From contig OZ024741.1 of the NCBI GenBank assembly GCA_964016885.1, positions 200,570,001 through 200,634,000 on the forward strand: a stretch of 64,000 nucleotides of DNA, given 5' to 3'. A program made the translations under genes and the position numbers. Under the pieces are notes generated by a model. The model had not been told where the DNA came from. It searched no databases and saw nothing but the letters and a program-made list of their open reading frames with translations. Shown one piece after another: positions 2,980 to 57,300 of the stretch (positions are counted from its first letter, which is position 1; each line of letters opens with the position of its first letter). The stretch is from Eledone cirrhosa. Lineage: Eukaryota.

Positions 2980-3900
2980 AATCAGAGGACTTGCTCGCTA
3001 CAATGTGGATATTGCTGCAGTGCACTACCAGAAACATGCATCACCGATGAAGACCAACTGCTACTGGTACTAATTAGATCTTCACTGGTATGAACGCCAC
3101 ATTTTGTCATCACATCATGCACCATGCGCAACCTAACGAACTTATCAAAAGGTATCAATGACCGGCTTATGATATTTCATCTCCCTCTCAGTAACAGCAC
3201 CTAAGATGTCACGCTGGTCAGTGTATATGCACAGGACAAGGATCCTAGATACAAGCACGAGCATATGTTAAACTTATATCATAACACAACAAACTGACAG
3301 ACAAGATGCCCTGCACACAAGAGTTATTCATGGATCAGAAAGTCGGAACGATCACAAATTGGTGATATCTGTACTCGCCATGATTGCCAAACCAAAACGA
3401 AGACCACAGGGTGAGAATCCTCTTGAGGAGCTCAACACTTTAAATTAAAATCAAGGGATACTTTTGAGACAGCCTTGAAAATCATATCAAAATAAACTTT
3501 TCAATCTAAAGTTTGGTGAAATAAGTGTAGAAGATGAAAGGATAGACCTAAAGAATCAGCGTTCGAAAACCTGCATACAACAATCAGGAAACACCAGCAA
3601 TGTTTTGACAAGAATGATGCAGGATTCTCCAAGGAGAAGCACAAGCTCTTTGCCTCTTATCAGTGCGATCTAACTAGTGCATCAAAGAATCCATCTTTTG
3701 TAAAGAAATGCCAGAATATACAGTAGCAATTAAGGCACATGTAAGAAAATGAACTTTACAAAATGCTAAAGAAATCCAGCCTAATACTGATAAACATGAC
3801 CTGAAGAGGTTCTATGATTCACTGGAAGCTGAATATGCTTCTCAATCTTCAGGAACTGCATTTCTTTTAAATACTGACAGATCAACACTTATCAAGAACA
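2980..3900 (+). pseudogene. Decayed RTE-clade LINE, APE endonuclease and linker region
   Basis: Fragments translate as LARYNVDIAA, INDRLM, TLVSVYA, DRQDALHTRV, DHKLV, with many stops and deletions. Confidence 0.7.
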
Positions 3901-3959
3901 TATTTACAAAAACAGAGATTACAGAAAGAATACATAATGCATGTATGGAACCGTAACTC

Positions 3960-5025
3960 CTGACGAACTTTTTACTTGGACAAATATACACATATATTTG
4001 TATACAAATATCCGTGTTTCCTGTGTTTATAGGATAGCAGAGTGAAAGACAAATATTAGGCACTGGCCAGCTAGAAATAATTTGACTGTTGAGGAGAAGA
4101 ATATCATACACCAACCACTTGTTGGGCGAGAGAAAATCATCTTCCCAGTTCTTTATATTAAACTAGGACTAATGAAGTAGTTTGTCAAATGGCTTAATGT
4201 GGCGGGTGACTGTTTCAAATTCATATGTACAACATTTCCTGGCCTAAGTTATTATGAAATAAAGGCTGGTGTTTTTGACAGGACACAAATCAGAAAGTTA
4301 ACGAAATGTCAAACATTCTCGAGCTCAATTACTGATGTAAAGAAGAGAACATAGGATTCATTTGTGTCTGTTGTGAAAGGATTTTGGGGGCAGCAAAGAG
4401 ACTGCAAACTACAAGGATTTGGAAGAGACATTGCTTGATGGCTTTCATCTTTTAGGCTGCAATATGAGAATAAAGATTCATTTTCTCAAGAGCCATCTCA
4501 ATGAATTTCCTGCTAATCTTGGAGACATGATTGATGAGCATGGTGAGCGCTTCCATCAAGATATCAAGGTTATGGAGGAGAGATATCAAGGTAGATGGAA
4601 CACATGCATGATGGCAGACTACTGTTAAAATATTCAAAGAGGCTGTGTAGACATGAAACACTCCAGGCGCTCTTGTAAGCGAAGATTTGTCCCATGAATA
4701 TGTTGGTGAGTGTATAATTGTTTGTGCTTTATCGATTTTATTTGAGAATTAACAAGATGTATTTAATAAAAGGTGATGTTATCTTATATTTTAGCTATCA
4801 TATCAAATTCTATTGGCATTATAACTTATGGTGTCAAGCTATAAGGCTTAGTAATCCACCCTAAATAAATTATATTATTCATATAGTGCATAATAAAATA
4901 GTGATGTGTTATAAAATGAAAACCTGATGTGTTGAGAAAAAAATGGACGCCATGTTTGAAATCAGCACCTCAAAATTAGCTGAAAACAACAAAATATAAG
5001 TCCGCAAAATATGTGTTGACCAGTG
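3960..5025 (+). mobile_element. Chapaev-like (CMC) DNA transposon, 3' part with decayed transposase and right TIR
   Basis: HWPARNNL..KNI..PL..IKLGLMK*FVK and IKIHFLKSHL.EFPANLG..DEHGERFHQDIKVMEERYQGRW..MMADYC; ends ...TGTTGACCAGTG (rc CACTGGTCAACA). Confidence 0.75.
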
Positions 5026-5616
5026 TTATAGGTCGGCTTGACCATATTTGATTTGATAACAACACTTTTATAAGATCACAGAAACTGAAAATGCAGATAC
5101 TAAAAATAATAATAATTTTTAAATATGAAAAATTAATTACAAAGATAATCATGACTCCGAAGGCATCTAATACGTCTTTCTAACATAGGCACAAGGCCGT
5201 CAATTTAGGGGAAGTGGTAAGTCGATTATATCGACGCCAACACGTAATTGGCACTTTATTTTCTCGTCATTGAAAGAATGAAAGGCAAAATTGATCTCAG
5301 ATTGATTTGAACTTAGAACGAAATGATCCGTAAGTAAAGACCAGAAAGCATCTAACGTTCTAGCCAAAGCTATCTAATACTAATAGTAAGTAGAAGGAGA
5401 TTGAGAACTTCTACAAGTTAACCAAACTCTACATTGGAAATAAAAGTACTGTAAAAAGGATTTTAAAAACCATACTAATATTTGATAGATAAAAAAATTA
5501 GAATTATATTACTTTAGATGAAAAACAAAATCATAAATGAATATTGGCATTTGGCCCATCGATATCTTTGACAGCATTTAGCTGTTTTAACAGCTGTTCG
5601 AGCGATGAGTTTTCTC

Positions 5617-5680
<64 letters not shown>

Positions 5681-5766
5681 CGAAGGAGTTGTTGTAAGGA
5701 ACCAGATGGACCATAACGCACCAGAGTACTCAATACTTAGGGTAGTAGAGTGGGTAATAGGAAAAT

Positions 5767-5868
5767 GTATGACCCCGACGGCAGAGCTCAAGCGGTTTCG
5801 ACGGCTATTTCTGGATTAGTCCAGAAATAGCCGTCGAAACGGCTTGAGCTCTGCCGCCAGGGTCATAC
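5767..5868. repeat. ~49-bp-arm near-perfect hairpin with TTAG loop
   Basis: gtatgaccccgacggcagagctcaagcggtttcgacggctatttctgga / tccagaaatagccgtcgaaacggcttgagctctgccgccagggtcatac. Confidence 0.9.
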
Positions 5869-5879
5869 AGTACACAACA

Positions 5880-5932
<53 letters not shown>

Positions 5933-6399
5933 GTATATGTATGTATATATGTATATATACGTGTGCATATATAAGTATATGAATGTATACAGTAGAGAGA
6001 GAGAAAGAGAACGCCATTTTTCTCATAGAATTGCTTTACTTTTGAGTTTCATTGATTCTATAATAGAGGGGGGAATTCTACAAGGTCACTCGATCTGCTA
6101 GAAATAGCAATCAAAATGCCTTCAAGTTACCATCCTATGTCTTGAAAAGGAAATGATTCATTGAAATAAAACTATATCTAAAAAAAAGAGAGAGTAAGAC
6201 GGGATGGTTATGGTTGGAATGCTTTTTATCATAAGTCAGCTCAATCGGCTGACCTGAATATAAACAATAGCATCACATAAAGTTGTTATTTAGTGCAAGC
6301 CGCGTATTTTTCTGATAAGATATTACAATCGCTGATTAAATGGGCCTCAATATATTTTGTACTTACTTTATCGTTCTAAAAAGATGGAAATCTAAATTA

Positions 6400-6601
6400 A
6401 CTCTGATTTATATACATATATATATATACAAATCATGTTTGTATGTATATATATATGTGTGTGTGTGTCTGTATATATATATATATATATATATATACAT
6501 ACAGACACACACAGACACACACACACATATACATACATACATACATACATACATACATACATACATACGTACATAAATACATACACATATATGTATGTGT
6601 G

Positions 6602-6670
<69 letters not shown>
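6400..6670. repeat. Compound microsatellite (TA)/(CA)/(TACA)/(GA)
   Basis: Direct runs. Confidence 0.95.
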
Positions 6671-17521: not shown

Positions 17522-18270
17522 CTAACAGCGCTGCGATCGAATGTGGCTTTTTAGCCCAGCCAATGATCTAAAATGTCTTGCACAGAGTCGGCAACCAAAA
17601 CATTCACTGGGAATAGCCGGCTGTGGTTGGAGTTCATATACTTTTGATGTCGTTTGAGCCCTCCTGCTGATTTACATTCTCTACCACATGCTTGGCAAGC
17701 ATGATGAGTAGTATCTCCAACAGCAGCCTGGTAGTCAACCACTGGTCTTACTTTATGACTGCGAAGATGACTTTCGAGTCCAGCTTTGCTTAGGCAGAGT
17801 CTCGCACAGACGCTGTATGTCAGCACCATAGGAGGACCCTCGCCGTCTGGAAGTGCAACAGCAATGCCCTTCCTCACATCCCGCTTTACTTTCTCGTATG
17901 CGATTCGAGATGCCACAAAGGCAACTTTTCCCTCATATACAGTCTTTCTCCATTTATTACGATCAGCAGCAATATTTTCCCATGTATCAGCAGAGATGTT
18001 AGCGTCTTTCAAAGAGGCTTTCAAGGAATCCTTATACCTCTATTTTGGTTTATGTGGCGGTCATTTTCCTTTAACCAACTCTCCATAAAAGAGTTGTTTT
18101 GGTATTCTAGAATCCTTCATCCTGGCAAGGTGACCACTCCAACGGAGTCGTTGCTTAAGCACAAGAGCTTCTATACTGTCACACATATAGCTTTCCAAAA
18201 TCTCGACACCACTGATGTGGTCCCTCCAGTGAACGCCATGGATCCGTCTGAGACATATCCGTCTGAGACA
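17522..18270 (-). pseudogene. 3' end of RTE-clade LINE ORF2 with three C2H2-type zinc fingers
   Basis: CLRRIHGVHWRDHIS..RLRWSGHLARMKDSRIPKQLFYGEL..; DTWENIAADRNKWR; YSVCARLCLSKAGLESHLRSH, CQACGRECKSAGGLKRHQK, and (after a frameshift) CRLCARHFRSLAGLKSHIRS. Confidence 0.85.
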
Positions 18271-26025: not shown

Positions 26026-27230
26026 GTAGTGTGAACAGTTGAGGGAGAGGGTGGTGGTGTGTGTGGGGGGAGGGTTGTGTGTATGTTAGTGGAGGTGCTG
26101 GTAGGATGTGAATGGGAGTGTTGGTAGTACGGAGGGAGAGAGAGAAGGTGCTGGGTACAGTATGAATGAGTGTAATGTACTGGTGTGTGTGTGTGCGTGT
26201 TTGGATATGAATGCGTGTGTGTGTGGTAGGGTGGGTGTTAGTATTATTAGTGGTGCGGGGAGTCGAATATGGGTGTGTGGCGGCGGTTTGTGGTGGTAGT
26301 GCGGGTGTGGAGTGGGTTGTGTATCCGTGTGTACGTGAGTGTGGGTGAGTGTATGTATGCTGGTGTGTGTTCGTGTGTGTGTGTGAAGTGAGGGGGGAGG
26401 TGGGTTGGGGGATGTTTAGTATTATTAGTGGTGCGGTGGTCGGATGTGGGAGTGTGGGTGGGGGTTAGTGGTGGTAGTAGATTGAGCGTGTGTGAATAGT
26501 GTGAGTGAGTGTATATATGTACTGGTGTGTGTGTGTGCGCGTGTGATAGTATTATTAGTTGTGGGGTGGACCAAGGGGGTAGGGGTGACTAGAAGTGGAG
26601 GGGACGGTGAATCTTGGGAGTGTTTTAGTGGTGTTTATAGGGGAAGGGGAGGCGGACAGTCGAACGCTAAAGGAAGAAGGTGGGAGTTCAGGCCGGATGG
26701 GGGGGGGTCTGTAGGGTGAAGATGGTGTGTTGTTTGGCTCTAAGGCGGGTTGCGGGGGTCCCATGGCATTCGATAAGACCACAGACCGTGAGGTTGTTGG
26801 CGGAGTGTCCAGGGGAACCAAAGTGGCGGGCGATGGAGGAACTCCCGCCGAAACGAATATCTCGGAGGTGCTCCGTGAACCGATCCGCCAGGCGGCGTCC
26901 GGTCTGTCCGACATAGGTTGCGCTGCACTCCGCGCAGCGAAATCCACAGACGAGGCTGGGGGGAGGTGCAGCGGAAGGCATGCCGGACAGAGAGAGTGAC
27001 CATTGGGACTCTGGGAGATGGTGGTGTTGGTAATGTGGGGGGCAGGTGTGGCAGCGGAGTCTCTGGAGCAGGGAAGGGGCCGGGGGAGGTTGGGAGCTGC
27101 GGACGAGGAGGTTGCGGAGGTTGCGCGCGCGTATGAAGGAGGGGGGTGGGGATGGGATGATGGGGGTGGAGGGTTTGGACTAGAGTGGTCGGAAGAGGCG
27201 GAGGATGGTGCGGTGGAGGGGTGGTAGGTG
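26026..27230 (-). pseudogene. Penelope-like element 3' fragment: Cys-rich linker + GIY-YIG endonuclease + CA-rich 3' UTR
   Basis: PCSR..CHTCPHI; RCAECSATYVGQTGRRLADRFTEHLRDI...SIARHF..GHS; frameshifted. Confidence 0.85.
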
Positions 27231-27363
27231 GGGGGCGGTGTTAACAACGGAGTTATGTTCATAACAGATATGAAGCACTCGAACGTAAAATTTATCTGGA
27301 GTATTATGATAATAATAGTAATAAACGGAATATATAACACTATAGCATCATTATTTATTTCAT

Positions 27364-27549
27364 GCGGTGGATTGGCAGTATCGGTAGAGGTTCGGACGCC
27401 ATGCTTTGACGCATAGAGTTACGGCCCTTGCCATTCTGAGTTCAAATCCCGCCGAGGTTAACTTTGCCTTTCATCCTTACGGGGTCGATAAAATAAAGTA
27501 CCAGTAATGTACTGGGTAATTTTCTGGCCTTGTGCCAATAGTAGAAACA
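27364..27549 (+). mobile_element. Full-length SINE, 14-bp TSD
   Basis: TSD attatttatttcat at 27350-27363 and 27550-27563; A box tggcagtatcgg, B box gttcaaatcc. Confidence 0.9.
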
Positions 27550-27555
27550 ATTATT

Positions 27556-27615
27556 TATTTCATTATATATATTTCAGCTATGCTAAATTATAGCATGCCT
27601 TCTTCAGACAAAATA
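27556..27615 (-). ncRNA. Type I hammerhead ribozyme motif
   Basis: tattttgt-CTGAAGA-aggcatgctataatttagcatagct-GAAA-tatata-TA-atgaaata. Confidence 0.75.
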
Positions 27616-27769
27616 CAATATTGGATGTATAAAATGTTATATGACATACTCGTAAGAGAGACTGTATCCGATCAATTCTAAATGTTTAGAATTGATATTT
27701 ATATACCCGTTTAGAATTGATCGGATACAGTCTCCCTTACGAATATATCATTTTATACACCTAATAGTG

Positions 27770-27823
27770 TATTTTGTCTGAAGAAGGCATGTTATAATTT
27801 AGCATAGCTGAAATATATATAAT
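27770..27823 (+). ncRNA. Hammerhead motif whose 3' stem I strand is displaced by a SINE insertion
   Basis: tattttgt-CTGAAGA-aggcatg...catagct-GAAA-tatata-TA-at, then SINE; remainder atgaaata resumes at ~28023. Confidence 0.7.
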
Positions 27824-28013
27824 TGTTTCTACTTTAGGCACAAGGCCAGCAAATACACAGTGCATTACTGGTACTTTATTTTATCGAGCCCGTAAGGATG
27901 AAAGGCAAAGTCAACCACAGCGGGATTTGAACTCAGATCGTAAAGGGACGTAACTATGCTGGAAAGCATGGCGTCCAACCCTCTACCGATACTGCCAATA
28001 CACTGCCCTCCGC
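27824..28013 (-). mobile_element. Full-length SINE, 11-bp TSD
   Basis: TSD atatatataat at 27813-27823 and 28014-28024. Confidence 0.9.
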
Positions 28014-28113
28014 ATATATATAATGAAATAAATAATGATGCTATAATGTTATATATTCCGTTCTTTACTATTATTATCATAATAGTCCAGATAAATTTAT
28101 TATGCAGTATTAT

Positions 28114-28295
28114 GGGTGGATTGGCAGTATCGGTAGAGGGTCGAACGCCATGTTTTCCAGCACAGTTACGTCCCTTTACGATCTGAGTTCAAATCCCGCC
28201 GAGGTTGACTTTGCCTTTCATCCTTACGGGGTCGATAAAATAAAGTACCAGTAATGCACTGGGTAATTGCTGGCCTTGTGCCTAAAGTAGAAACA
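28114..28295 (+). mobile_element. Full-length SINE
   Basis: Family consensus; same 3' flank (attatttatttcat) as the 27364 copy. Confidence 0.9.
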
Positions 28296-28301
28296 ATTAT
28301 T

Positions 28302-28361
28302 TATTTCATTATATATATTTCTGGAATGCTAAATTATAGCATGCCTTCTTCAGACAAAATA
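28302..28361 (-). ncRNA. Type I hammerhead ribozyme motif (third copy of the module)
   Basis: Homologous to 27556-27615; base of stem II altered. Confidence 0.6.
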
Positions 28362-28950
28362 CAATATTAGATGTATAAAATGTTATATGCCATACTCACA
28401 AGAGTGACCTATCAGATCAAATGGGAATTATAATACTCCAGATAAATTTACTGTCAAGTGCTTCGTATCTGTTATGAAGATAACTCTGTGGATTACATAA
28501 CAAGTCTCTAACTCATTGTTTATATATCTAATATATAAAGTGAAGTTGGGCGTTATTTGTTTGTTTGTTTGGTGTCCGGAACTTGCAGGCTACACCGTTC
28601 ATCCGATTTTCATGAAACTTGACACATATATAAAATTCGATCTGTAGATTGGAATAGGCTACTTGAAATTTTCGAAAGATCGATAATCGGGCCGCCAGAA
28701 GCCAAAAATCGATATTTTAAAAAATCGTCCGATTTCGATGAACCTCGACGCAAGTATGTATTTTGATCCGAGGATGAACATGGACTACATTAAATTTTCG
28801 AAAAAATCCATAATTGGATCACCAGAGGCAAAAATCGATATTTACGAAATTTGTCCGCTTCCAATAAAATTTGACGTAGGTATGTATTTTGATGCGGGGA
28901 TCAACGTGGGGTATTTGAAATTTTCAAAAAAATCGATAATCGGACCTCAG

Positions 28951-30150
28951 ACTCAGAAGCTCCCGCGTCTTGCGACGCATGAGGCAATCATAGTGTCCCA
29001 TCGTGTTCGGTTAGCAGCCAGTTGCACAGCGTCCCGCCATTGTCTGTTTGTCGCTCGCAGGTCCCTCTCAACTGTCTAGCGCCAGTTCATTTTGGGTCGC
29101 CCTCTCCGTCTGCTTCCCTGCGGGCTCCATTTAAGTACTTGGTTCACCAGTCTCTCCGGGGGAAGTCTCAAGGCGTGTGCAAACCAGCCCAGGCGTCGCT
29201 TGCAGATGGTAGAAGAGACTAGCTGCTGGTTGATGCGGTTCCTGACTTCCTAATTTGTTACATGGTCACTCCATTTAATCCCCAGGATCTTTCGCAGACA
29301 TCTGGAATCGAATGCGTCCAACTTCTTCTATTGGCTGGTCTTAAGGTGCCATATTTCACTTCCGTACAAGAGTGTGGACAGCACGTTGCTGTTGTAGAAT
29401 CTCATCTTTGTTTTGAGGGTGAACTTCCTGCTCTTCCAGATCTTGTCAAGCTAGTTAAATGCTGCTGAAGCCTTTCCCATTCTGCATTGCAGTTCACTGT
29501 CCATGGTGCCCTCATTATTAATGGAGCTTCCTAGGTAGGTGAAGTTGTCCACTATTTCCACCTCCCCCTGTTCAATGAAGACACTGGTTGGTGGTGGGTG
29601 TGTCCCAGATAACATGCTTTTGGTCTTCTTGGCACTGATATTGAGACCTAAGCTTCCTGCTTCAACATTGATATTGTTCACAATGATTTGCAGGTCAGCT
29701 GTGCTCTCTGCAAGTGCAGCAATATCGTCCGCAAAGTCCAGGTCAGACAACTTTTGCTCTCCCACCCAAGATATACCCTGGTCTTTAGATGCTCTTCTTA
29801 GTACCCAGTCAATGGCCATGGCAAATAGAATTGGAGAGAGCGAGCAACCTTGACGTATGCCAGTAACCACCTCAAACCAGTCACTGTAACCATCCTCTGT
29901 CCGTATGCAGCACTTGGAGTTTGCGTAAATCTGTTTGATTGCCGAAATGACTTTCTGGGGCAGACCATACTCATGCATGATGCTCCAGAGTGACGGTCGA
30001 TGAATGCTATCGAATGCTTTGGAGAAATCGATGAAGCTGATGGCGAGGGGCCTCTGGAATTCGTTGTACCTCTCAATGATGCGGCGTGGCGTAAAGATCT
30101 GCTCTGCACAGGAACGTTTTGGTCGAAACCCTTCCTGTTGTTCTCGCAGG
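28951..30150 (-). pseudogene. 5'-truncated RTE LINE RT fragment inserted in the Helitron
   Basis: EQQEGFRPKRSCAEQIF, FIDFSKAFDSI, GIRQGCSLSPILF, LDFADDIA, FTYLGS; imperfect TSD aatcggacc(t/cc)cag; CTGAGT tail. Confidence 0.9.
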
Positions 30151-30689
30151 AATCGGACCCCCAGAGGCAAAAATCGATATTTTCAGAATTCGTCCGATTT
30201 CAATGAAATTTGATATTACCACAATAATAGATCCATTAGGAGTTACTCCAAGGCTGCAAACATTCAGAAAGTATTTTTAAACTCATAAATCATGCGTTAA
30301 ATGAGACCTTTAAGAGTTAGGGTAGACAATTATTCATAGTTTAATTATCAATGGCGCAATATCTTCTACCCTGGGACCAATTCTCGATGCAGAGCCTTAA
30401 AGCATCCCTTCGCGCACGCCGTTATCTATCAGCTTCATTGAGCATCACCATCCGGCAACCGAAAAACGCCATTCTTCTTGCTTCCATTTGTCGCGACTCC
30501 CGCCATACAAAAAACGTTCAATCTATCAGGATTAACCACCGTAAGTCTCTTTAAATTAACGCTCACCATATTCAGCAAACCTTTTATGCCGATTCTTCCA
30601 TTTCTTATATAAGGACTATCAAGACTATACCGATGCGCATCATCCTGTATTGCGCCCAGTCTTCTCAAGCGATCATCGAGCCTCCATGT

Positions 30690-32560: not shown

Positions 32561-33456
32561 AAAGGAGAATCGAAAACCCTTTTTCTCATAACCTGATACA
32601 TGCGTTATACATGCTCCATGGATGTTTGTGGACTAATTTTTCAAAATACCAATATCACAGATTGGAGCACAAAAAGAAACGTTTGTTCTTCATTTATTTC
32701 GGTTAAAACATCCTGCTGAAATTTAGCGCAGACCCGTTTAAATCCAGCGCCTTATAACCTCGAGTGTAACCGGGTACACCAGCTAGAAAGACAAATGGAA
32801 ACATAGTTTCCTCGGTCCGATTTGACGAAAGTCGATTTAGTTCCACAACAAATTAACAAACCATACTTGAAGACACGTTGAGGCTGTTGCAAAGGGCAAT
32901 AACCCTAGACACAATTTTGGTCAACTTTTTTTCACCTATAGCAAATTTACCGGGACAGGTTTTTAGCTACTCAAATCTACTTCAGAGGTCACGCATTCAT
33001 GTAAAAAATCAATGAAACTGAAGTGGGGTTCGACTTTACGCAAAAAACAAGGCAAAGTTGCACATGGGAGAACTTTTTACAGGAACGCCCGATTTTCTTG
33101 AAAACTGTCGCAAAAGACTCGCCATTATGCCGCAGTTCAGATAAAGTCCCTTTTATTTCTTCTACTGCACATGTGAGGGGGAAAATTGTAAAAAAATTTT
33201 AAAAATTTCAATTTCAAGTGAATTTGACTTCCGTCAGTCGTGCAAAGAACAATTTCAACGATACACTGTGTACCTACAATTGATCCATTATTTATACTCA
33301 ATTACACACCTGCGTCTACTAACCTCTGTTTTTTTTTCCTTGGGGTTCGAAGTTTTTTGCACCTGTAATCCGCGGGAAGTAACTTTCACACATTTTAACA
33401 ACAGAGCAAAGGTCGACTTACACCCGGGCAACGCCGGGTACTTCTGCTAGTATATA

Positions 33457-33500
<44 letters not shown>

Positions 33501-33685
33501 GATAAATCTACCAAGAGTTCACGGTAGTGTCCAATCCGTATGAAGAACTCAATGTATTCCGGATATCATGGAAAGAAGAGATGTAATGAAAAACGACTTT
33601 CGGTGAAAGATAAACGGTATACAGAGTCAAGATAAAATATTAAACAAATAATGAATAAACAATTCCTTATATTAAACAAAAAAAG

Positions 33686-33840
33686 TTCATTATTTAACGA
33701 TCGTTTCTAGGATATATATGTGTTATAATTGGTATGCATATTCAACAGATCTATGTACAAAATTATACAAAATTATACAAATTATCAAGATTAAATATAC
33801 ATACCAAACACATATATACGCCGTCTTCAGAAATAATGAA
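33686..33840 (-). ncRNA. Type I hammerhead ribozyme motif (left arm of palindrome)
   Basis: Reverse complement of 39297-39451. Confidence 0.75.
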
Positions 33841-34646
33841 GTATATTTATTGATAATAACAACAATTCAAAATTTCAGTTCAAAATTGACCAATGAAAAC
33901 ACAAAGGGTTAAATGCAGTTCGGTGTGTGTATATACATGTAAAACCCTTACACATATTTTACAAAAATGTATGTATAATTTGTATACGCATACTAAAAGG
34001 ATGGATGCAAATACGAAATTTCAAGGTTAATGTCTCTGTGAGCTTACAATGCGCAGATAAGATACTTATGAAATCAAGTATATAAATATATTTTTTCATA
34101 CTCACACATATCAGTACAATCACACATACACGCGCGTATATGCATAAATATACACATAACCACGAACATACAAACACACACACACCCCCACTCACATTTA
34201 TATATGTGGATATAAAATCATAAGCACATGGATATTAATTCACTCACATAAAACACTGGCACACACATTTCTAGATCAAGATACAGAAATTAGGTGGGAG
34301 GGGGGGGGGGGTCAGTATTCAACTGTCTGAGCAAACTGTCTAATATAAATGTATCTATAAATTAAGAAAAATAAAAAAATAAAACAATAAAATATAATAA
34401 ATATAATATAATATACATACACATACAGATATATACACATACATACATGTACGCACACATAGAAATATTTACGCATACACACATACACACATACATATAC
34501 AGTCATACACACACATACACTTACACGAACATACACATACACATATATAAAGATATATATATACACACACACACACACACGCAACACATACACACATACA
34601 CATATATATAAAAATAAATAATAAAGATATATACCTATATACATAT

Positions 34647-34697
<51 letters not shown>

Positions 34698-35096
34698 CAC
34701 ACACATACATCTAAATATACATACACATACATACACACATACATGTACATACATGTACATACATATACGCACATCGATATACATATATATATATATACAT
34801 ATATATATATACACACACATAGACATGTAGATACATACACACACAACTTACATACACACATATATATATACATGTATATTCATACATAGAATTAGATATA
34901 TAATCATACATACTTATGCACTTACTTATACTCATATATACAAATACATACGCATCTATATATGCATATATACATAAAAAAAACTACAACCTCACCTAAC
35001 TCAGACATACAAATAAAAATAATAATAAAAAGGCATATGTATATACATACACACGCGCATTAATAGAGATATATATATAGAGACACATACATACAC

Positions 35097-35160
<64 letters not shown>

Positions 35161-35163
35161 ACT

Positions 35164-35205
<42 letters not shown>

Positions 35206-35273
35206 GATATCCACACACTCATACCACCATAAATACACATACAAACACCCACATATATATATATATACACACG

Positions 35274-35305
<32 letters not shown>

Positions 35306-35425
35306 TAAAAAACAGACATGCACATATATATATACATTAATTACACTTATATATACACATATTATATACACGTACACAACCTCACTTATACATACATACA
35401 CATAAGTTATATTATAATAATAAAG

Positions 35426-35478
<53 letters not shown>

Positions 35479-35572
35479 TATACATACATACATACATATA
35501 CATACATACATATAAACATATACATACATAAATACACACATACTAATAAAGACATATATTCACACATAGACA

Positions 35573-35612
<40 letters not shown>

Positions 35613-37629
35613 TATATACATATATACACACACACATAAACACAGACACTACACATATACACACTCACATATATATATGTGTGTGTGTGCGCACACACAC
35701 ATATGTACACACACACACACAAATACACATAAACACATACATATGCATTCATGCACACACACACACACATATATCACATAGATACGAAGATAAACATATA
35801 AATAGAGAGACATACATATATATACAACACACATACACACACATACATACACACGCATATACATATACATATATAATATACATATATATATTCCTATATA
35901 TACATGCATACACATATATACACATATATACACATACATACACATATACGTACACACATTCACATACACATACATATATAATGCATATATACACATATAT
36001 ACATACATATACACACTCATATATACACACGCAATCTTACATTCATATTTGCATGCGCATATATGTATTTTTATATTTAGATATAAATACCCAAACCTAT
36101 ATAGACACCTACCTACATATATATTCATACATAGACGCTTACAAATACAGATGATAATAGTATGGGGGAAAGGGGGGGTTTGGAGAAGGGGATCAAAGTA
36201 AATATATGTTTCAAGAAACATAGAAAATTTTCCGTATTTTTATCCAATGTATGTTCTTACATATTTTCAGTGTTAGGAAATACGACAAACAAGAACCAAA
36301 GCAAAATCTATGCATCTCAAAATAAATAAGTATATCATTAATCATATGTTAACTAAACCAAAGATAGTCAACATATTGATTTCTAAGGTGTAAATTAGTT
36401 AGGTTTATAATATTTGAAGCAGAATTTTGAAGTCAAACAGTAGTAGATTATTAATTACAGTATAACTAAATTAAAGTTAATAACGTTATGGTATCAATAT
36501 TAGGAAATGAATTTAGTAATAGGGAAAAAAATAAAATAAAGTATTACATCGGTAGTAGAATATAAATTATATGTTAACTAAATTAAAAATTATATATTTA
36601 TTTCAATAGTATATGTTAATTAGGTATAATTAACATATACTATTGAAATAAATATATAATTTTTAATTTAGTTAACATATAATTTATATTCTACTACCGA
36701 TGTAATACTTTATTTTATTTTTTTCCCTATTACTAAATTCATTTCCTAATATTGATACCATAACGTTATTAACTTTAATTTAGTTATACTGTAATTAATA
36801 ATCTACTACTGTTTGACTTCAAAATTCTGCTTCAAATATTATAAACCTAACTAATTTACACCTTAGAAATCAATATGTTGACTATCTTTGGTTTAGTTAA
36901 CATATGATTAATGATATACTTATTTATTTTGAGATGCATAGATTTTGCTTTGGTTCTTGTTTGTCGTATTTCCTAACACTGAAAATATGTAAGAACATAC
37001 ATTGGATAAAAATACGGAAAATTTTCTATGTTTCTTGAAACATATATTTACTTTGATCCCCTTCTCCAAACCCCCCTTTCCCCCATACTATTATCATCTG
37101 TATTTGTAAGCGTCTATGTATGAATATATATGTAGGTAGGTGTCTATATAGGTTTGGGTATTTATATCTAAATATAAAAATACATATATGCGCATGCAAA
37201 TATGAATGTAAGATTGCGTGTGTATATATGAGTGTGTATATGTATGTATATATGTGTATATATGCATTATATATGTATGTGTATGTGAATGTGTGTACGT
37301 ATATGTGTATGTATGTGTATATATGTGTATATATGTGTATGCATGTATATATAGGAATATATATATGTATATATATATGTATATGTATATGCGTGTGTAT
37401 GTATGTGTGTGTATGTGTGTTGTATATATATGTATGTCTCTCTATTTATATGTTTATCTTCGTATCTATGTGATATATGTGTGTGTGTGTGTGCATGAAT
37501 GCATATGTATGTGTTTATGTGTATTTGTGTGTGTGTGTGTACATATGTGTGTGTGCGCACACACACACATATATATATGTGAGTGTGTATATGTGTCTGT
37601 GTATATGTGTGTGTGTATATATGTATATA

Positions 37630-37669
<40 letters not shown>

Positions 37670-37763
37670 TGTCTATGTGTGAATATATGTCTTTATTAGT
37701 ATGTGTGTATTTATGTATGTATATGTTTATATGTATGTATGTATATGTATGTATGTATGTATA

Positions 37764-37816
<53 letters not shown>

Positions 37817-37936
37817 CTTTATTATTATAATATAACTTATGTGTATGTATGTATAAGTGAGGTTGTGTACGTGTATATAATATGTGTATATATAAGTGTA
37901 ATTAATGTATATATATATGTGCATGTCTGTTTTTTA

Positions 37937-37968
<32 letters not shown>

Positions 37969-38036
37969 CGTGTGTATATATATATATATGTGGGTGTTTG
38001 TATGTGTATTTATGGTGGTATGAGTGTGTGGATATC

Positions 38037-38078
<42 letters not shown>

Positions 38079-38081
38079 AGT

Positions 38082-38139
<58 letters not shown>

Positions 38140-38538
38140 GTGTATGTATGTGTCTCTATATATATATATCTATTAATGCGCGTGTGTATGTATATACATA
38201 TGCCTTTTTATTATTATTTTTATTTGTATGTCTGAGTTAGGTGAGGTTGTAGTTTTTTTTATGTATATATGCATATATAGATGCGTATGTATTTGTATAT
38301 ATGAGTATAAGTAAGTGCATAAGTATGTATGATTATATATCTAATTCTATGTATGAATATACATGTATATATATATGTGTGTATGTAAGTTGTGTGTGTA
38401 TGTATCTACATGTCTATGTGTGTGTATATATATATATGTATATATATATATATGTATATCGATGTGCGTATATGTATGTACATGTATGTACATGTATGTG
38501 TGTATGTATGTGTATGTATATTTAGATGTATGTGTGTG

Positions 38539-38587
<49 letters not shown>

Positions 38588-39296
38588 ATATGTATATAGG
38601 TATATATCTTTATTATTTATTTTTATATATATGTGTATGTGTGTATGTGTTGCGTGTGTGTGTGTGTGTGTATATATATATCTTTATATATGTGTATGTG
38701 TATATATCTGTATGTGTATGTATATTATATTATATTTATTATATTTTATTGTTTTATTTTTTTATTTTTCTTAATTTATAGATACATTTATATTAGACAG
38801 TTTGCTCAGACAGTTGAATACTGACCCCTCCCCCCCCTCCCACCTAATTTCTGTATCTTGATCTAGAAATGTGTGTGCCAGTGTTTTATGTGAGTGAATT
38901 AATATCCATGTGCTTATGATTTTATATCCACATATATAAATGTGAGTGGGGGTGTGTGTGTGTTTGTATGTTCGTGGTTATGTGTATATTTATGCATATA
39001 CGCGCGTGTATGTGTGATTGTACTGATATGTGTGAGTATGAAAAAATATATTTATATACTTGATTTCATAAGTATCTTATCTGCGCATTGTAAGCTCACA
39101 GAGACATTAACCTTGAAATTTCGTATTTGCATCCATCCTTTTAGTATGCGTATACAAATTATACATACATTTTTGTAAAATATGTGTAAGGGTTTTACAT
39201 GTATATACACACACCGAACTGCATTTAACCCTTTGTGTTTTCATTGGTCAATTTTGAACTGAAATTTTGAATTGTTGTTATTATCAATAAATATAC

Positions 39297-39451
39297 TTCA
39301 TTATTTCTGAAGACGGCGTATATATGTGTTTGGTATGTATATTTAATCTTGATAATTTGTATAATTTTGTATAATTTTGTACATAGATCTGTTGAATATG
39401 CATACCAATTATAACACATATATATCCTAGAAACGATCGTTAAATAATGAA
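39297..39451 (+). ncRNA. Type I hammerhead ribozyme motif (right arm of palindrome)
   Basis: ttcattattt-CTGAAGA-(~115-nt stem II: tatatatgtgtt/aacacatatata, tggtatgtatattta/tgaatatgcatacca)-GAAAC-gatc-GTT-aaataatgaa; 10-bp stem I. Confidence 0.75.
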
Positions 39452-39496
39452 CTTTTTTTGTTTAATATAAGGAATTGTTTATTCATTATTTGTTTA

Positions 39497-39557
<61 letters not shown>

Positions 39558-39660: not shown

Positions 39661-39727
39661 TATTTTATCTGATGAGGTCGTACTGTTGAACTTAACTCAG
39701 TACCTCTGAAATATGTATAATAAAATA
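39661..39727 (+). ncRNA. Type I hammerhead ribozyme motif
   Basis: tattttat-CTGATGA-ggtcgtactg...cagtacctct-GAAA-tatgta-TA-ataaaata; perfect 8-bp stem I. Confidence 0.8.
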
Positions 39728-40030: not shown

Positions 40031-42923
<2,893 letters not shown>

Positions 42924-42931
42924 TATATATA

Positions 42932-42990
<59 letters not shown>

Positions 42991-45147: not shown

Positions 45148-46810
45148 TTAGGGAGAAGTGTTTAGACGGGGTCCGTATTTGTTAATAAAGTAAGATTCCT
45201 TGCTGATGCGCTGGGTGTGGGTGGCATTATCTTTAAATTTGTAGAGGGGAAAGATTCTGAAGTTGGGATGATTTTGGGCGGCACAGGTATCAATGTGTTC
45301 ACTCAGTGGTATTTTCCTGTATTCCCGTATTTTAATTTGGGATTTATGGACAGTCATGCGTTGGCGGAGGCTGTTTTTGGTCTGGCCTATGTATTGTTCT
45401 CGACAACCTGAGCAAGTTAATACATATATTAGATTTTCTGATGCGCATGTGAAATTGTGTTTTACTATAAAACGTTGTCCTTCTTTGAAATAGAATTCCG
45501 AACCCTCTATTAGGTTGATGCATATGCCACAGTTGGGTCTATCGCATTTTTTTTACTGTGGGTTTCGTTGTTGTGGTTGGCAATACTTTGGCATGTGTTA
45601 GGATGTTTTTCATTGACTTAGATTGTCCTTTGCTCTTTATGATATCGTGTGTTCGTAGGATTTGGTTCATTCTATGGTCCTTTTTCAACACAGGGATGTT
45701 CTGGAGGATGGTGTCAAAGGCCTCATTGTTGAGGGGGTTGTGTGTGGAGATGTATGGAAGAGCTTTTAGTTTCGGTTGATTTACTTTAGGGTGTCTAAGG
45801 TCCTGGGTACTGAGTTTTAGGGCACGTTGGATTCCATTGTCAATTAGTGATGCAGGGTAGTCCCTGCCTATGAGTGTGTCCTTTAGTTCTTGTAGCCGTA
45901 AGTTGCAGTGTTTTTATTGGAGACTATAGTACAGATTCTCTTGGCTAAGTTGTAGGGAATATTAATTTTAACGTGTCTAGGGTGGCAAGAGTTGAAAGGA
46001 AGATATTGCTTGGAGTCTGTGGGCTTGTAGTATATGTCTGTTTCTATTTTTTTGTTATGGATCTTAATGAGGATGTCGAGGAAGGGGAGTTGTTGATGGC
46101 TGTATTCCATCGTGAAGTTAATATTCGTGTTGAGCCCATTTATAAGGGTGTGAAATTCTTTAAGTTTCTCGATGTTTTCGTGCCAAAGGATGAAGCAGTC
46201 ATCTAGATATCGCTTCCAGTTCCTTTCTATGTGTAAGTGGAGAGTGTTTCCAAATTTATTTAGGACTTTAGTGTAGAGGGTGATTTCCAGGTATCCCATG
46301 ACTACGTTGGCATAAATGGGGGCTGTTTTCGTTCCCATAGCGGTCCCAGGTTTGTTATTGAAAATGAAGTAATTGTTCTCCAAGATAAATTTGAGTCCCT
46401 CTATCACGAATTCTTTTTTGATGCGTTGTGGGAGTTCATTGTGGTAATTATCCAGCCAGAATTGGATAGCTTCTATTCCTAGGTTGTGGGGGATGTTGGA
46501 GTATAGGTTGACTACATCGAACGTCACTAGTAGGGTTTGTTCAGAAAGTGGCATATTAGGGAGGTGATTGAGCATATCTAGGTCGTCCCTTATATAGCTT
46601 TTGATGTGTTTGAGAAAAGGCTTGAGAAGGGTATCAATGAAGTTGCTGAGGCGGTGGGTTTCGCAAACGGGGCCTGCTATTATAGGTCTTAATTTGAGAT
46701 CATTGGGTGAGGGGACATTGATGACTATGTCTGTGGCTTCCTTGCATGCCTTACTTATTAATTCGCTTTTATGTACTTTAGGGATACCGTAGAAAAGGGT
46801 GGATTTACTT
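45148..46810 (-). pseudogene. Penelope-like retroelement, 5'-truncated RT + GIY-YIG endonuclease
   Basis: FYGIPKVHK, LRPIIAG, VTFDVVNLYSNIPH, GTAMGT, WKRYLDDCF, LPFLD, YYKPTD..YL..SCHP; then NLIYVLTCSGCREQYIGQTK..LRQRM..H; frameshift near 45890. Confidence 0.92.
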
Positions 46811-46859
46811 GTGAATTCATCCGCCAAAACTAAGGGTTGCTCCCCTTGTCGAGCCCCAC

Positions 46860-46918
<59 letters not shown>

Positions 46919-46964
46919 TATATATACAGTTGAAAATTGCGAACTTGACTGTCACCACAGAATA

Positions 46965-47003
46965 TGAACCTGAAGATTGTGAAAGCATGAAAGTACTTGT
47001 TCA
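46965..47003 (+). ncRNA. Minimal type I hammerhead ribozyme motif
   Basis: tgaac-CTGAAGA-ttgtgaaagcat-GAAAG-ta-CTT-gttca; palindromic aagtactt. Confidence 0.75.
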
Positions 47004-47133
47004 ATTAACACTTAACATTTAATATTCTACCATACTATTTCATTCTAATACCATTATAAATTTTAAAGGATTGTAAATAAAACGAGTAATTCAGACAAAG
47101 TTGGAATTCCTTTTATTAATATATACATATATA

Positions 47134-56200: not shown

Positions 56201-57300
56201 CGGACATGAGCTGAGCTATTCCAGGCGGATGTGTGAGGCCTTTCGCCAGCACTTTGCTCGGTTCTTCGCGGGTAGGTGGGGTGGGGGAACGGTGGGTCGG
56301 AGATGGTAGCGGACTTCAGTTCCAGCCTCGACGGTTACCGCGTCTCTCGATGTCCGATGCTGAGCGCTGCGAAAGTTGGTTGCACAAGGCACAAGTCACC
56401 CGGATTGACAAGTCTGCCCTACTTGCTTTACTTAGATATGCGCTCTCCTCGAAACGCTCTACTGCAACTGGCAACAGAACGAGAGTGTTCCCAGGTGAGC
56501 CGGGGTGTAGTGACGCCGATAGGAGAGACACATTAGATATCTTCAGACCCATAACTATGCTCAATACAGAGTTTAAGATTTTGGACGAGGTGTTAGCGAT
56601 GAGGTTGGTGCTTGTCGTCGAGGATTTGGTTGTGGACGCACAAACTTGCACAATCCCGACCAGGTCCACACACGACAACCTCCACCCCATGCGATACATC
56701 ATAGAGAGGGTCGGGTGTAAACATGGCTTTGGTGGGGCTCTCATCAATTTAGATCAATCGAAAGCTTTCGATAGGGTTGACCAGTGATAACTGGAGGCTG
56801 TCCTCAAGTCAGATGGCTTCGGTCCCGTCTTCAGTGGCTGGATCACTGCAATGCACAGTGACATCTGTTCGGTGGTCAAAGTTAAGGGCCACCTTGCAGA
56901 ACCGTTTCAGATCTCCAGATCCGTTCAATGGTGCCCTCTCTCCTCCCTTCTGTATGTTTTGATTCTCGAGCCTTTACTGCGGAAGCTGGAGCTGTCGCAG
57001 GGCATCCCACTTGAATCGGACGTGGAAAGCCTGTCCCAGCTTATGCGGACGACATTACTCTGATGGTGTCGAACACCTCAGAAACAGAGGTAGTCGACAC
57101 CTTATTGGATGAATATGAAAGGTTAACTGGAGCGAAACTTCTTAACCCGGAAAAGTCGGTGGGATTGCAACTCGACACCTGGAGAGGCATGCCTATGCCG
57201 TCCTACAGCGTCGTCGGGCGCTGGACGGACGGACCGGTAAAGTTGCTCGCGGTTTGGTTTGGACCAGACCTCAAGGTGGATAACAATTGGGACGAGGTGG
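53260..57300 (+). pseudogene. Tx1/L1-clade LINE: ORF1 with CCHC zinc knuckle, ORF2 APE endonuclease + RT; many disablements, 3'-truncated
   Basis: CFVCSEATHLRAFC (~54255-54300); GGLNVRGL, GDWNVIL, SYIDRIL, YSDH (55090-55790); FRPITMLNTEFKIL, LDQSKAFDRVD, CPLSSLLYVLILEPL, AYADDI. Confidence 0.88.

Follow-up and report, generated by a model that had tools for sequence, protein, structure and literature searches.

A 5.9-kb, nearly perfect palindrome lies within the 64,000 nucleotides of Eledone cirrhosa DNA analyzed here (contig OZ024741.1, positions 200,570,001–200,634,000; hereafter, the window). We find that it is a single 5′-truncated insertion of a Penelope-like element (PLE), in which each arm is the 3.0-kb 3′ half of an autonomous 6.44-kb element. 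Head-to-head insertions of this kind recur throughout the element's family, and the positions at which their arms begin and end suggest that each end of the target cut probably primed its own copy of one RNA before the two complementary DNAs (cDNAs) were joined. The origin of tandem and inverted PLE structures is called undefined in the parts of Craig et al. 2021 drawn on here (PMC8557442); double priming, if true, would explain this long-unexplained inverted habit.

Self-comparison of the window returned a single dominant inverted repeat, with arms at 33632–36622 (2,991 nt) and 36627–39505 (2,879 nt) that are reverse complements flanking GGTA (36623–36626). Global alignment of the left arm with the reverse-complemented right arm yielded 2,876 matches in 2,878 aligned columns, bearing out the palindrome described in an initial annotation of the window. 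The two substitutions correspond to a divergence of 0.7 per kb (0.07%), and the seven indels comprise one of 98 nt (34433–34530) and six of 1–6 nt, in keeping with the microsatellite-type length changes, few substitutions, and single long indel described there. The innermost 450 nt of the arms are perfectly mirrored. GGTA does occupy the center, but it is not the mere separator it was taken for: it is the antisense of positions 3141–3144 of the element's unit (numbered from the ATG of its open reading frame [ORF]), and so is templated element sequence. The left arm therefore reaches 36628 and overlaps the right arm by TA, a 2-nt microhomology at the center; loose ends at 36628 in public sequencing runs continue into upstream element sequence. 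In unit coordinates, the left arm spans 3139–6151 plus a tail and the right arm spans 3145–6151 without one. The annotated right limit of 39505 stands, whereas on the left the element continues beyond 33632 as the 134-nt tail (33498–33631). Both outer ends adjoin TA repeats. The description of the body as microsatellite holds only for about 34400–36030 of each arm, the remainder being ordinary AT-rich element sequence.

At the loci that we fetched, the parent is a tandem unit of 6.44 kb comprising an 813-amino-acid (aa) ORF, a microsatellite-rich 3′ untranslated region (UTR) of about 3.7 kb, a pseudo-long terminal repeat (pLTR) carrying a hammerhead motif, and the tail. The non-repetitive core of the UTR has 1,680 candidate matches in the 3.0-Gb genome, the 40 scored showing 95–100% identity, and a 26-mer from it has 1,174 exact matches genome-wide. 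Open in parent units, the single ORF encodes a reverse transcriptase (RT) followed by a GIY-YIG domain; the RT motifs FDI, MGS, and YRDD and the motif IVY..YIG are conserved in 12 homologs, and the protein's Atlas neighbors carry GIY-YIG, RVT_1, and HTH_animal in part of their members. Pfam did not call the RT in this ORF, its sole match being unrelated (E 0.08), and a PDB sequence search with the protein returned nothing meaningful. Motifs of the Hydra clade are present (RWR, DKT, CNCRNKANC as the CxCx5C linker, CRLC as CxxC, and CNH as CxH) and are conserved among aligned homologs; the GIY-YIG core contains no cysteine pair by eye. Insertion into (TA)n, a feature of the Hydra clade, is observed in the family, as are tandem or partial-tandem units forming pLTRs, an adjacent inverted 5′-truncated copy, and a one-ended tail. 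By its motifs, the parent is an autonomous Hydra-clade PLE; no named Hydra sequences occur among its 118 homologs.

Hydra-clade C-terminal endonuclease-bearing (EN+) PLEs, as covered in the consulted parts of Craig et al. 2021 (PMC8557442), share with the parent the single RT-then-GIY-YIG ORF, the motifs RW(K/R), DKT, CxCx5C, CxxC, and CxH, the pLTR hammerhead, and (TA)n insertion. They differ in size, being "generally <3 kb" (a descriptive rather than diagnostic trait) compared with the 6.44-kb unit and 3.7-kb microsatellite-rich 3′ UTR found here, and the tail of 134 nt compares with the 30–40 nt given for PLEs in the same source. The parent differs further in a low-complexity insert of about 100 residues after the RT and in its thousands of near-identical young copies.

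The Penelope origin proposed in the initial annotation, with hammerheads residing in pLTRs, is thus upheld, as the arms are the 3′ half of an RT plus GIY-YIG element. The accompanying proposal of a non-autonomous derivative is not, since the center junction matches once genome-wide and the arms are merely half of an autonomous element. Other palindromic copies, which that annotation suggested seeking, do exist in the genome, but none shares this center. An amplifying non-autonomous family or retrozyme was rejected on these grounds, the junction being single copy and the other palindromes differing at their centers. Animal non-LTR retrozymes, in the portion of their description used here (bioRxiv 10.64898/2026.07.22.740005), are likewise noncoding, hammerhead bearing, and related to PLE pLTRs, but they are short tandem direct repeats that form families, whereas this is a one-off inverted insertion. 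It contains no ORF and most likely represents a dead copy, with putative promoters that face outward.

The palindrome belongs to a broader pattern. A 43-mer from the 3′ half of the hammerhead has 6,533 exact matches genome-wide, and among the first 100, drawn from 70 Mb of one chromosome, 32 head-to-head pairs account for 64 (counted by eye), 17 of the pairs being short and 15 longer than 1 kb. By rough extrapolation, the genome holds about a thousand multi-kb inverted repeats. Outer ends in the family are of exactly two kinds, with the tail and tail-less, nearly always meeting TA repeats: in sampled loci, 57 of 67 non-internal tail ends and 43 of 48 tail-less ends open with ten perfect TA letters, one further end being a variant tail. 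At 41 junctions with the tail seen on one arm, drawn from a mixed, non-random sample of loci, the arms were symmetric (within 30 nt) in 7, the tail arm was longer in 13, and the tail-less arm was longer in 21. Five unparsed junctions were taken from separate unit mapping or omitted, and one short locus (L133) was unmapped.

Symmetric arms form a distinct class in a young subfamily, for which we considered the first 100 of 141 matches. There, counting the window, the two arms end no more than 30 nt apart in 6 of 22 head-to-head pairs; the spacers in these are 4, 7, 0, 33, about 45, and 223 nt, and arms reach 5.3–5.9 kb. With the window excluded, 5 of 21 pairs are symmetric against 2.5% expected between loci (P = 1.3e-4). 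The paired stops of the symmetric cases are scattered along the unit (286/291, 848/848, 920/908, 1781/1781, 2610/2615, and 3139/3145). Position-ordered samples drawn from all subfamilies contained symmetric or spacerless arrangements in 0 of 14 resolved multi-kb pairs (one unresolved) and in 1 of 16; spacerless palindromes are a minority of multi-kb pairs. Among short pairs, 13 of 17 stop within 8 nt of each other, 10 of these at 5944–5953, and short insertions mostly stop at 5946–5948 on both arms. Their spacerless palindromic junction is matched 577 times on one strand and 562 times on the other.

Arms of one insertion resemble each other far more closely than they resemble the rest of the family. 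Sister arms differ by 0–2 substitutions per kb in 20 of 23 loci and by 5–6 per kb in three short overlaps, whereas the window's left arm differs from other loci by 8–68 substitutions per 2.4–3.0 kb. In the 16 of 36 loci that were usable, the sister was the nearest neighbor of 30 of 32 arms. Judged by these distances, both arms of one insertion share a source. Many centers contain overlaps of 1–9 nt or reiterated templated inserts of up to 223 nt. Short overlaps and reiterated templated inserts are a signature of microhomology-mediated end joining.

These observations bear directly on how the insertions arise. We judge it probable that the two ends of the cut target each prime a cDNA on one RNA and that these cDNAs are then joined. 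The element protein would cut both strands of a (TA)n target; one target 3′-OH would prime at the tail end and the other 134 nt upstream; and each cDNA would extend toward the 5′ end of the RNA, the second displacing the first. At the window locus both would have stopped nearly together (3139 and 3145), probably at a broken RNA end or a pause site, and their 3′ ends would be sealed by microhomology-mediated end joining, with fill-in producing the palindrome. The 21 insertions with a longer tail-less arm require two separately primed cDNAs, because a copy made from the tail-bearing cDNA cannot exceed it by kilobases upstream and a copy made from the tail-less cDNA cannot gain a tail. The fixed second end needs no extra rule if the RT has another point of initiation there, as it does in the anole element discussed below. 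Given the shared source and the common stops at scattered positions, it is simplest that a single RNA molecule templated both cDNAs, a process that would depend on strand displacement.

Several points weigh against this account. The excess of tail-less-longer over tail-longer insertions (21 versus 13) is not significant (P = 0.23), and strand displacement on one RNA was not found for any Penelope protein in the partly consulted literature. Two arms, A524 and B2_3667, are not closest to their sisters, the latter appearing disrupted, and conversion of one arm by the other could exaggerate the signal of a common source. At the window locus, moreover, the tail arm is 6 nt longer, and a 2-bp stem closing a 4-nt loop could arise at its end, as snap-back copying predicts, and in three other symmetric cases the tail arm is also longer or equal.

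Snap-back copying was the route suggested in the initial annotation. It would have a single tail-primed cDNA stop at 3139, fold on its terminal TA, and be copied back as a hairpin. The second strand of this hairpin, either cleaved or halted at the tail-less site, would then have been joined to the remaining end of the target. The geometry of the window's center is compatible with such an origin, symmetric junctions are a distinct and enriched class, and self-priming is the reading of palindromes at inverted Penelope junctions found in the examined part of Arkhipova et al. 2013 (PMC3846280). Even so, a 2-bp A-T stem would make a very weak primer, the exact stop at 6151 demands an extra rule, and the symmetric case with a long reiterated insert (223 nt, L187) resembles the joining of two ends. 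Snap-back can neither explain the fixed second end nor yield a longer tail-less arm, the state of 21 of the 34 asymmetric insertions, so that a second mechanism would be needed anyway. We consider it unlikely.

A lower probability still attaches to later spacer loss, in which an initially asymmetric insertion would have shed its spacer when a hairpin was processed and repaired. In favor of this reading, long inverted repeats are prone to recombination, and asymmetric inverted insertions are the majority. Against this, symmetric arrangements account for 5 of 21 young pairs and 0 of 14 other sampled copies (P = 0.07), the opposite of accumulation with age; the 5′ end at 3139 recurs in an unrelated asymmetric insertion (L038); and the window's arms are just 0.07% apart. 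The converse proposal, that spacerless palindromes are lost with age, was tried on the same comparison (5/21 versus 0/14, P = 0.07) and is not established.

The possibility that fold-back chimeric reads or merged haplotypes created the palindrome during assembly is highly improbable. No public-run record bridges the center, but the runs share at most 0.51 of the query words and look like relatives, and the four covering 36180–36680 show diverged family sequence; they are uninformative on an artifact, on expression, and on editing. The list of matching runs contained no RNA run. Every probed arm difference is private to one arm, with the other arm carrying the family allele, and both arms carry some. 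This comparison covered 81 arm ends, with two microsatellite length changes falling outside it, and the junction of the 98-nt deletion occurs in 1 of the 81, the window's right arm. The mirror symmetry ends at the family's two distinct natural ends rather than extending into the flanks, and the divergence of the arms equals that in sister insertions with kilobase spacers. These three features make a chimeric read improbable. The locus also lies interior to a 416-Mb sequence, and on this evidence it is probably no artifact of assembly.

With less assurance, though still inclined in its favor, we suggest a general form of double priming: PLEs would double-prime on one RNA, every insertion would be born as an inverted repeat, and spacerless palindromes of 0.5–11 kb would arise wherever the two cDNAs extend to a common RNA end. 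The family would in this way have written about a thousand multi-kb inverted repeats and more than 500 short palindromes, some of them transcribed and re-mobilized.

The closest functional parallel comes from the Poseidon element of Anolis carolinensis (Frangieh et al. 2024; the parts of PMC11167929 drawn on here). In vitro, its protein, a predicted dimer, cuts and extends both strands, using two internal RT start sites that flank the tail, and hammerhead cleavage is not needed. The Eledone family is alike in its two putative starts flanking the tail, its AT-rich target, the proposed extension of both strands, and the probable use of an uncut hammerhead template. Poseidon belongs to another clade, and its start sites lie inside the ORF, as against upstream of the ORF in the Eledone family; inverted insertions are not derived from double priming in those parts of the study. 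Published inverted 5′-truncated Penelope copies (Arkhipova et al. 2013, PMC3846280; Craig et al. 2021; both in part) share the head-to-head layout, one-ended tail, and junction palindrome. The inverted copies in the consulted parts of these sources are mostly pLTRs of ~200 bp with palindromes of 18–38 bp, in contrast to the whole 3–6 kb arms and spacers of 0–45 nt observed here, and our data favor two primed cDNAs over the self-priming view.

A further precedent is L1 twin priming, in which the other strand of the target primes an additional cDNA on the RNA already being copied and microhomology joins the two. Twin priming yields an inversion without duplication; in the present case a palindrome results, since the stretches copied into the two cDNAs coincide. 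Earlier publications already describe inverted 5′ copies, one-sided tails, TA targeting, and pLTR hammerheads. In the largely open-access literature that we covered, no description was found of multi-kb spacerless Penelope palindromes, of a Hydra-type element of 6.4 kb, or of such palindromes being caused by double priming on one RNA.

This young family numbers thousands of copies and combines intact ORFs with a pair of exact 3′ ends and a single sharp 5′ end; it allows rival models to be separated by counting and offers a ready substrate for reconstitution. As a retrotransposon source of multi-kb, near-perfect palindromes, it bears on genome stability and assembly errors and, if such palindromes are read through, on silencing by double-stranded RNA (dsRNA).

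Identical type I hammerhead motifs face outward at the two ends of the palindrome, with CUGAAGA starting at 33830 on the minus strand and at 39307 on the plus strand. Each has a stem I of 10 bp, core boxes separated by 116 nt, and AACGAUCGUU at stem III. The right copy folds at z = −6.6 relative to shuffled sequences. Its lowest-energy fold is non-catalytic (−47.8 kcal/mol, versus −44.5 kcal/mol with the core forced open, the constraint being placed one position off at the cleavage base), and stem III comprises 2 bp with a palindromic loop and a predicted self-dimer of −11.8 kcal/mol. Neither copy matched Rfam at the gathering score. The initial annotation had called both hammerheads complete; the motifs agree with this (stem I of 10 bp, AACGAUCGUU, predicted cut after 39441), whereas the base of stem II is imperfect, with a C and UA unpaired beside the core. 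Hammerheads with a short palindromic stem III are reported to need dimerization and to cleave poorly (PMC4209133, in part). Since genomic copies run through the predicted cut site, uncut RNA appears to be the template, and the hammerheads are probably passengers of the pLTRs. The cut site (unit 6087) was also considered as the origin of the family's 5′ ends and rejected: none was seen there, and the ends cluster at 5946–5948.

A sharp 5′ start occurs at unit 5946 in 629 copies, which suggests that this position is the 5′ end of the RNA and hence a putative transcription start. It is the A of a TCA initiator-like word. Weighing against this assignment, a cap-derived extra G is only hinted at (22 G among the 100 non-C matches listed), and junctions L123 and L125, although suggestive of such a G, are insufficient for a claim. 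The putative starts at 39300 (plus) and 33837 (minus) point outward, so a hairpin RNA requires read-through from outside. Read-through RNA would contain a full antisense copy of the ribozyme upstream, and the predicted duplex (−243 kcal/mol) far exceeds the ribozyme's own fold (−48 kcal/mol). In this model the antisense arm should sequester the ribozyme, which makes the ribozyme-terminated hairpin RNA envisaged in the initial annotation doubtful, as does the dimer-dependent type of stem III. Formation of dsRNA by read-through is plausible by analogy: long inverted Penelope copies match small interfering RNAs in transgenic Drosophila (PMC3681739, in part).

Table 1. Coordinates of the palindrome and associated features in the window
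Feature	Position	Strand	Comment
(TA)n target repeat, left side	33451–33497	.	repeat composition
134-nt tail, left arm only	33498–33631	-	end is one of the family's two fixed 3′ ends (putative RT start site A)
Left arm, unit 6151 back to 3139	33632–36628	-	pLTR and about 2.8 kb of 3′ UTR
Type I hammerhead motif, left copy	33686–33840	-	predicted cut 3′ of 33696; mirror of right copy
Unit position 5946, 5′-end hot spot of the family	33837	-	putative transcription start, outward
98 nt kept in left arm and family	34433–34530	-	deleted from right arm (~38703) between short direct repeats
Non-repetitive 3′ UTR part used as query	36180–36622	-	1,680 candidates; 1,174 exact matches of 26-mer
Center TA-GGTA-TA	36621–36628	.	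templated loop, 2-nt TA microhomology, unique junction
Right arm, unit 3145–6151	36627–39505	+	ends at the fixed tail-less site (putative RT start site B)
Type I hammerhead motif, right copy	39297–39451	+	CUGAAGA at 39307, GAAA at 39430, predicted cut after 39441
Unit position 5946	39300	+	putative transcription start, outward
(TA)n target repeat, right side	39506–39557	.	repeat composition

Elsewhere in the family, several loci have more elaborate structures. At L063-L064 (G000:C2:89511600-89531599), 3912–6644 contains two mirrored occurrences of the older junction 3302|420, and the arms extend to different lengths. Apparently, a transcript of a previous inverted insertion was itself inserted anew by way of two cDNAs. 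Centers with reiterated copies of the arm end, up to 223 nt, occur at L187 (4895–5119), L125, L182 (5174–5238), and L073-L074 and may have been produced either by a polymerase active in end joining or by the element's RT stuttering in the manner of telomerase. 5′ ends recur across unrelated insertions at unit 72, 845–851, 908–909, and 3139, which may be preferred RNA breaks or RT pauses. An array of full units, three followed by three in the opposite orientation, occupies G000:C2:36293928-36326626, and four full units lie in tandem at C1:126840602-126860847; such arrays imply that templates or rolling copies can be at least 20 kb long.

The window also contains four further hammerhead motifs from other PLE families, at 39669 (plus), 28353 (minus), 27607 (minus), and 16829 (minus). 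These have a shorter stem II and a palindromic TATATA or near-palindromic TATGTA at stem III; the one at 39669 begins just past the right TA repeat, and 27288–28420 also contains inverted repeats. A 373-aa open RT fragment at 45883–47004 (minus; Pfam RVT_1, E 2e-6) belongs to a different, canonical-looking PLE family and is 23% identical to the Hydra-type 813-aa protein. At 26688–27179 (minus), a 163-aa frame that has no Pfam match resembles, by eye, the GIY-YIG end of a Penelope protein; it contains a pair of internal cysteines and a histidine late in the frame. Fragments of long interspersed nuclear element RT ORFs lie at 29451–30182 (minus), 56215–56787 (plus), and 17551–18039 (minus), the first two matching Pfam RVT_1. 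Finally, a repeat at 32878–33510 and 42332–42983 (83% identical), which we take to be Helitron-like, ends in a GC-rich hairpin and CTAG just before a TA repeat, and the palindrome is inserted in the TA run at the end of the 32878–33510 copy.

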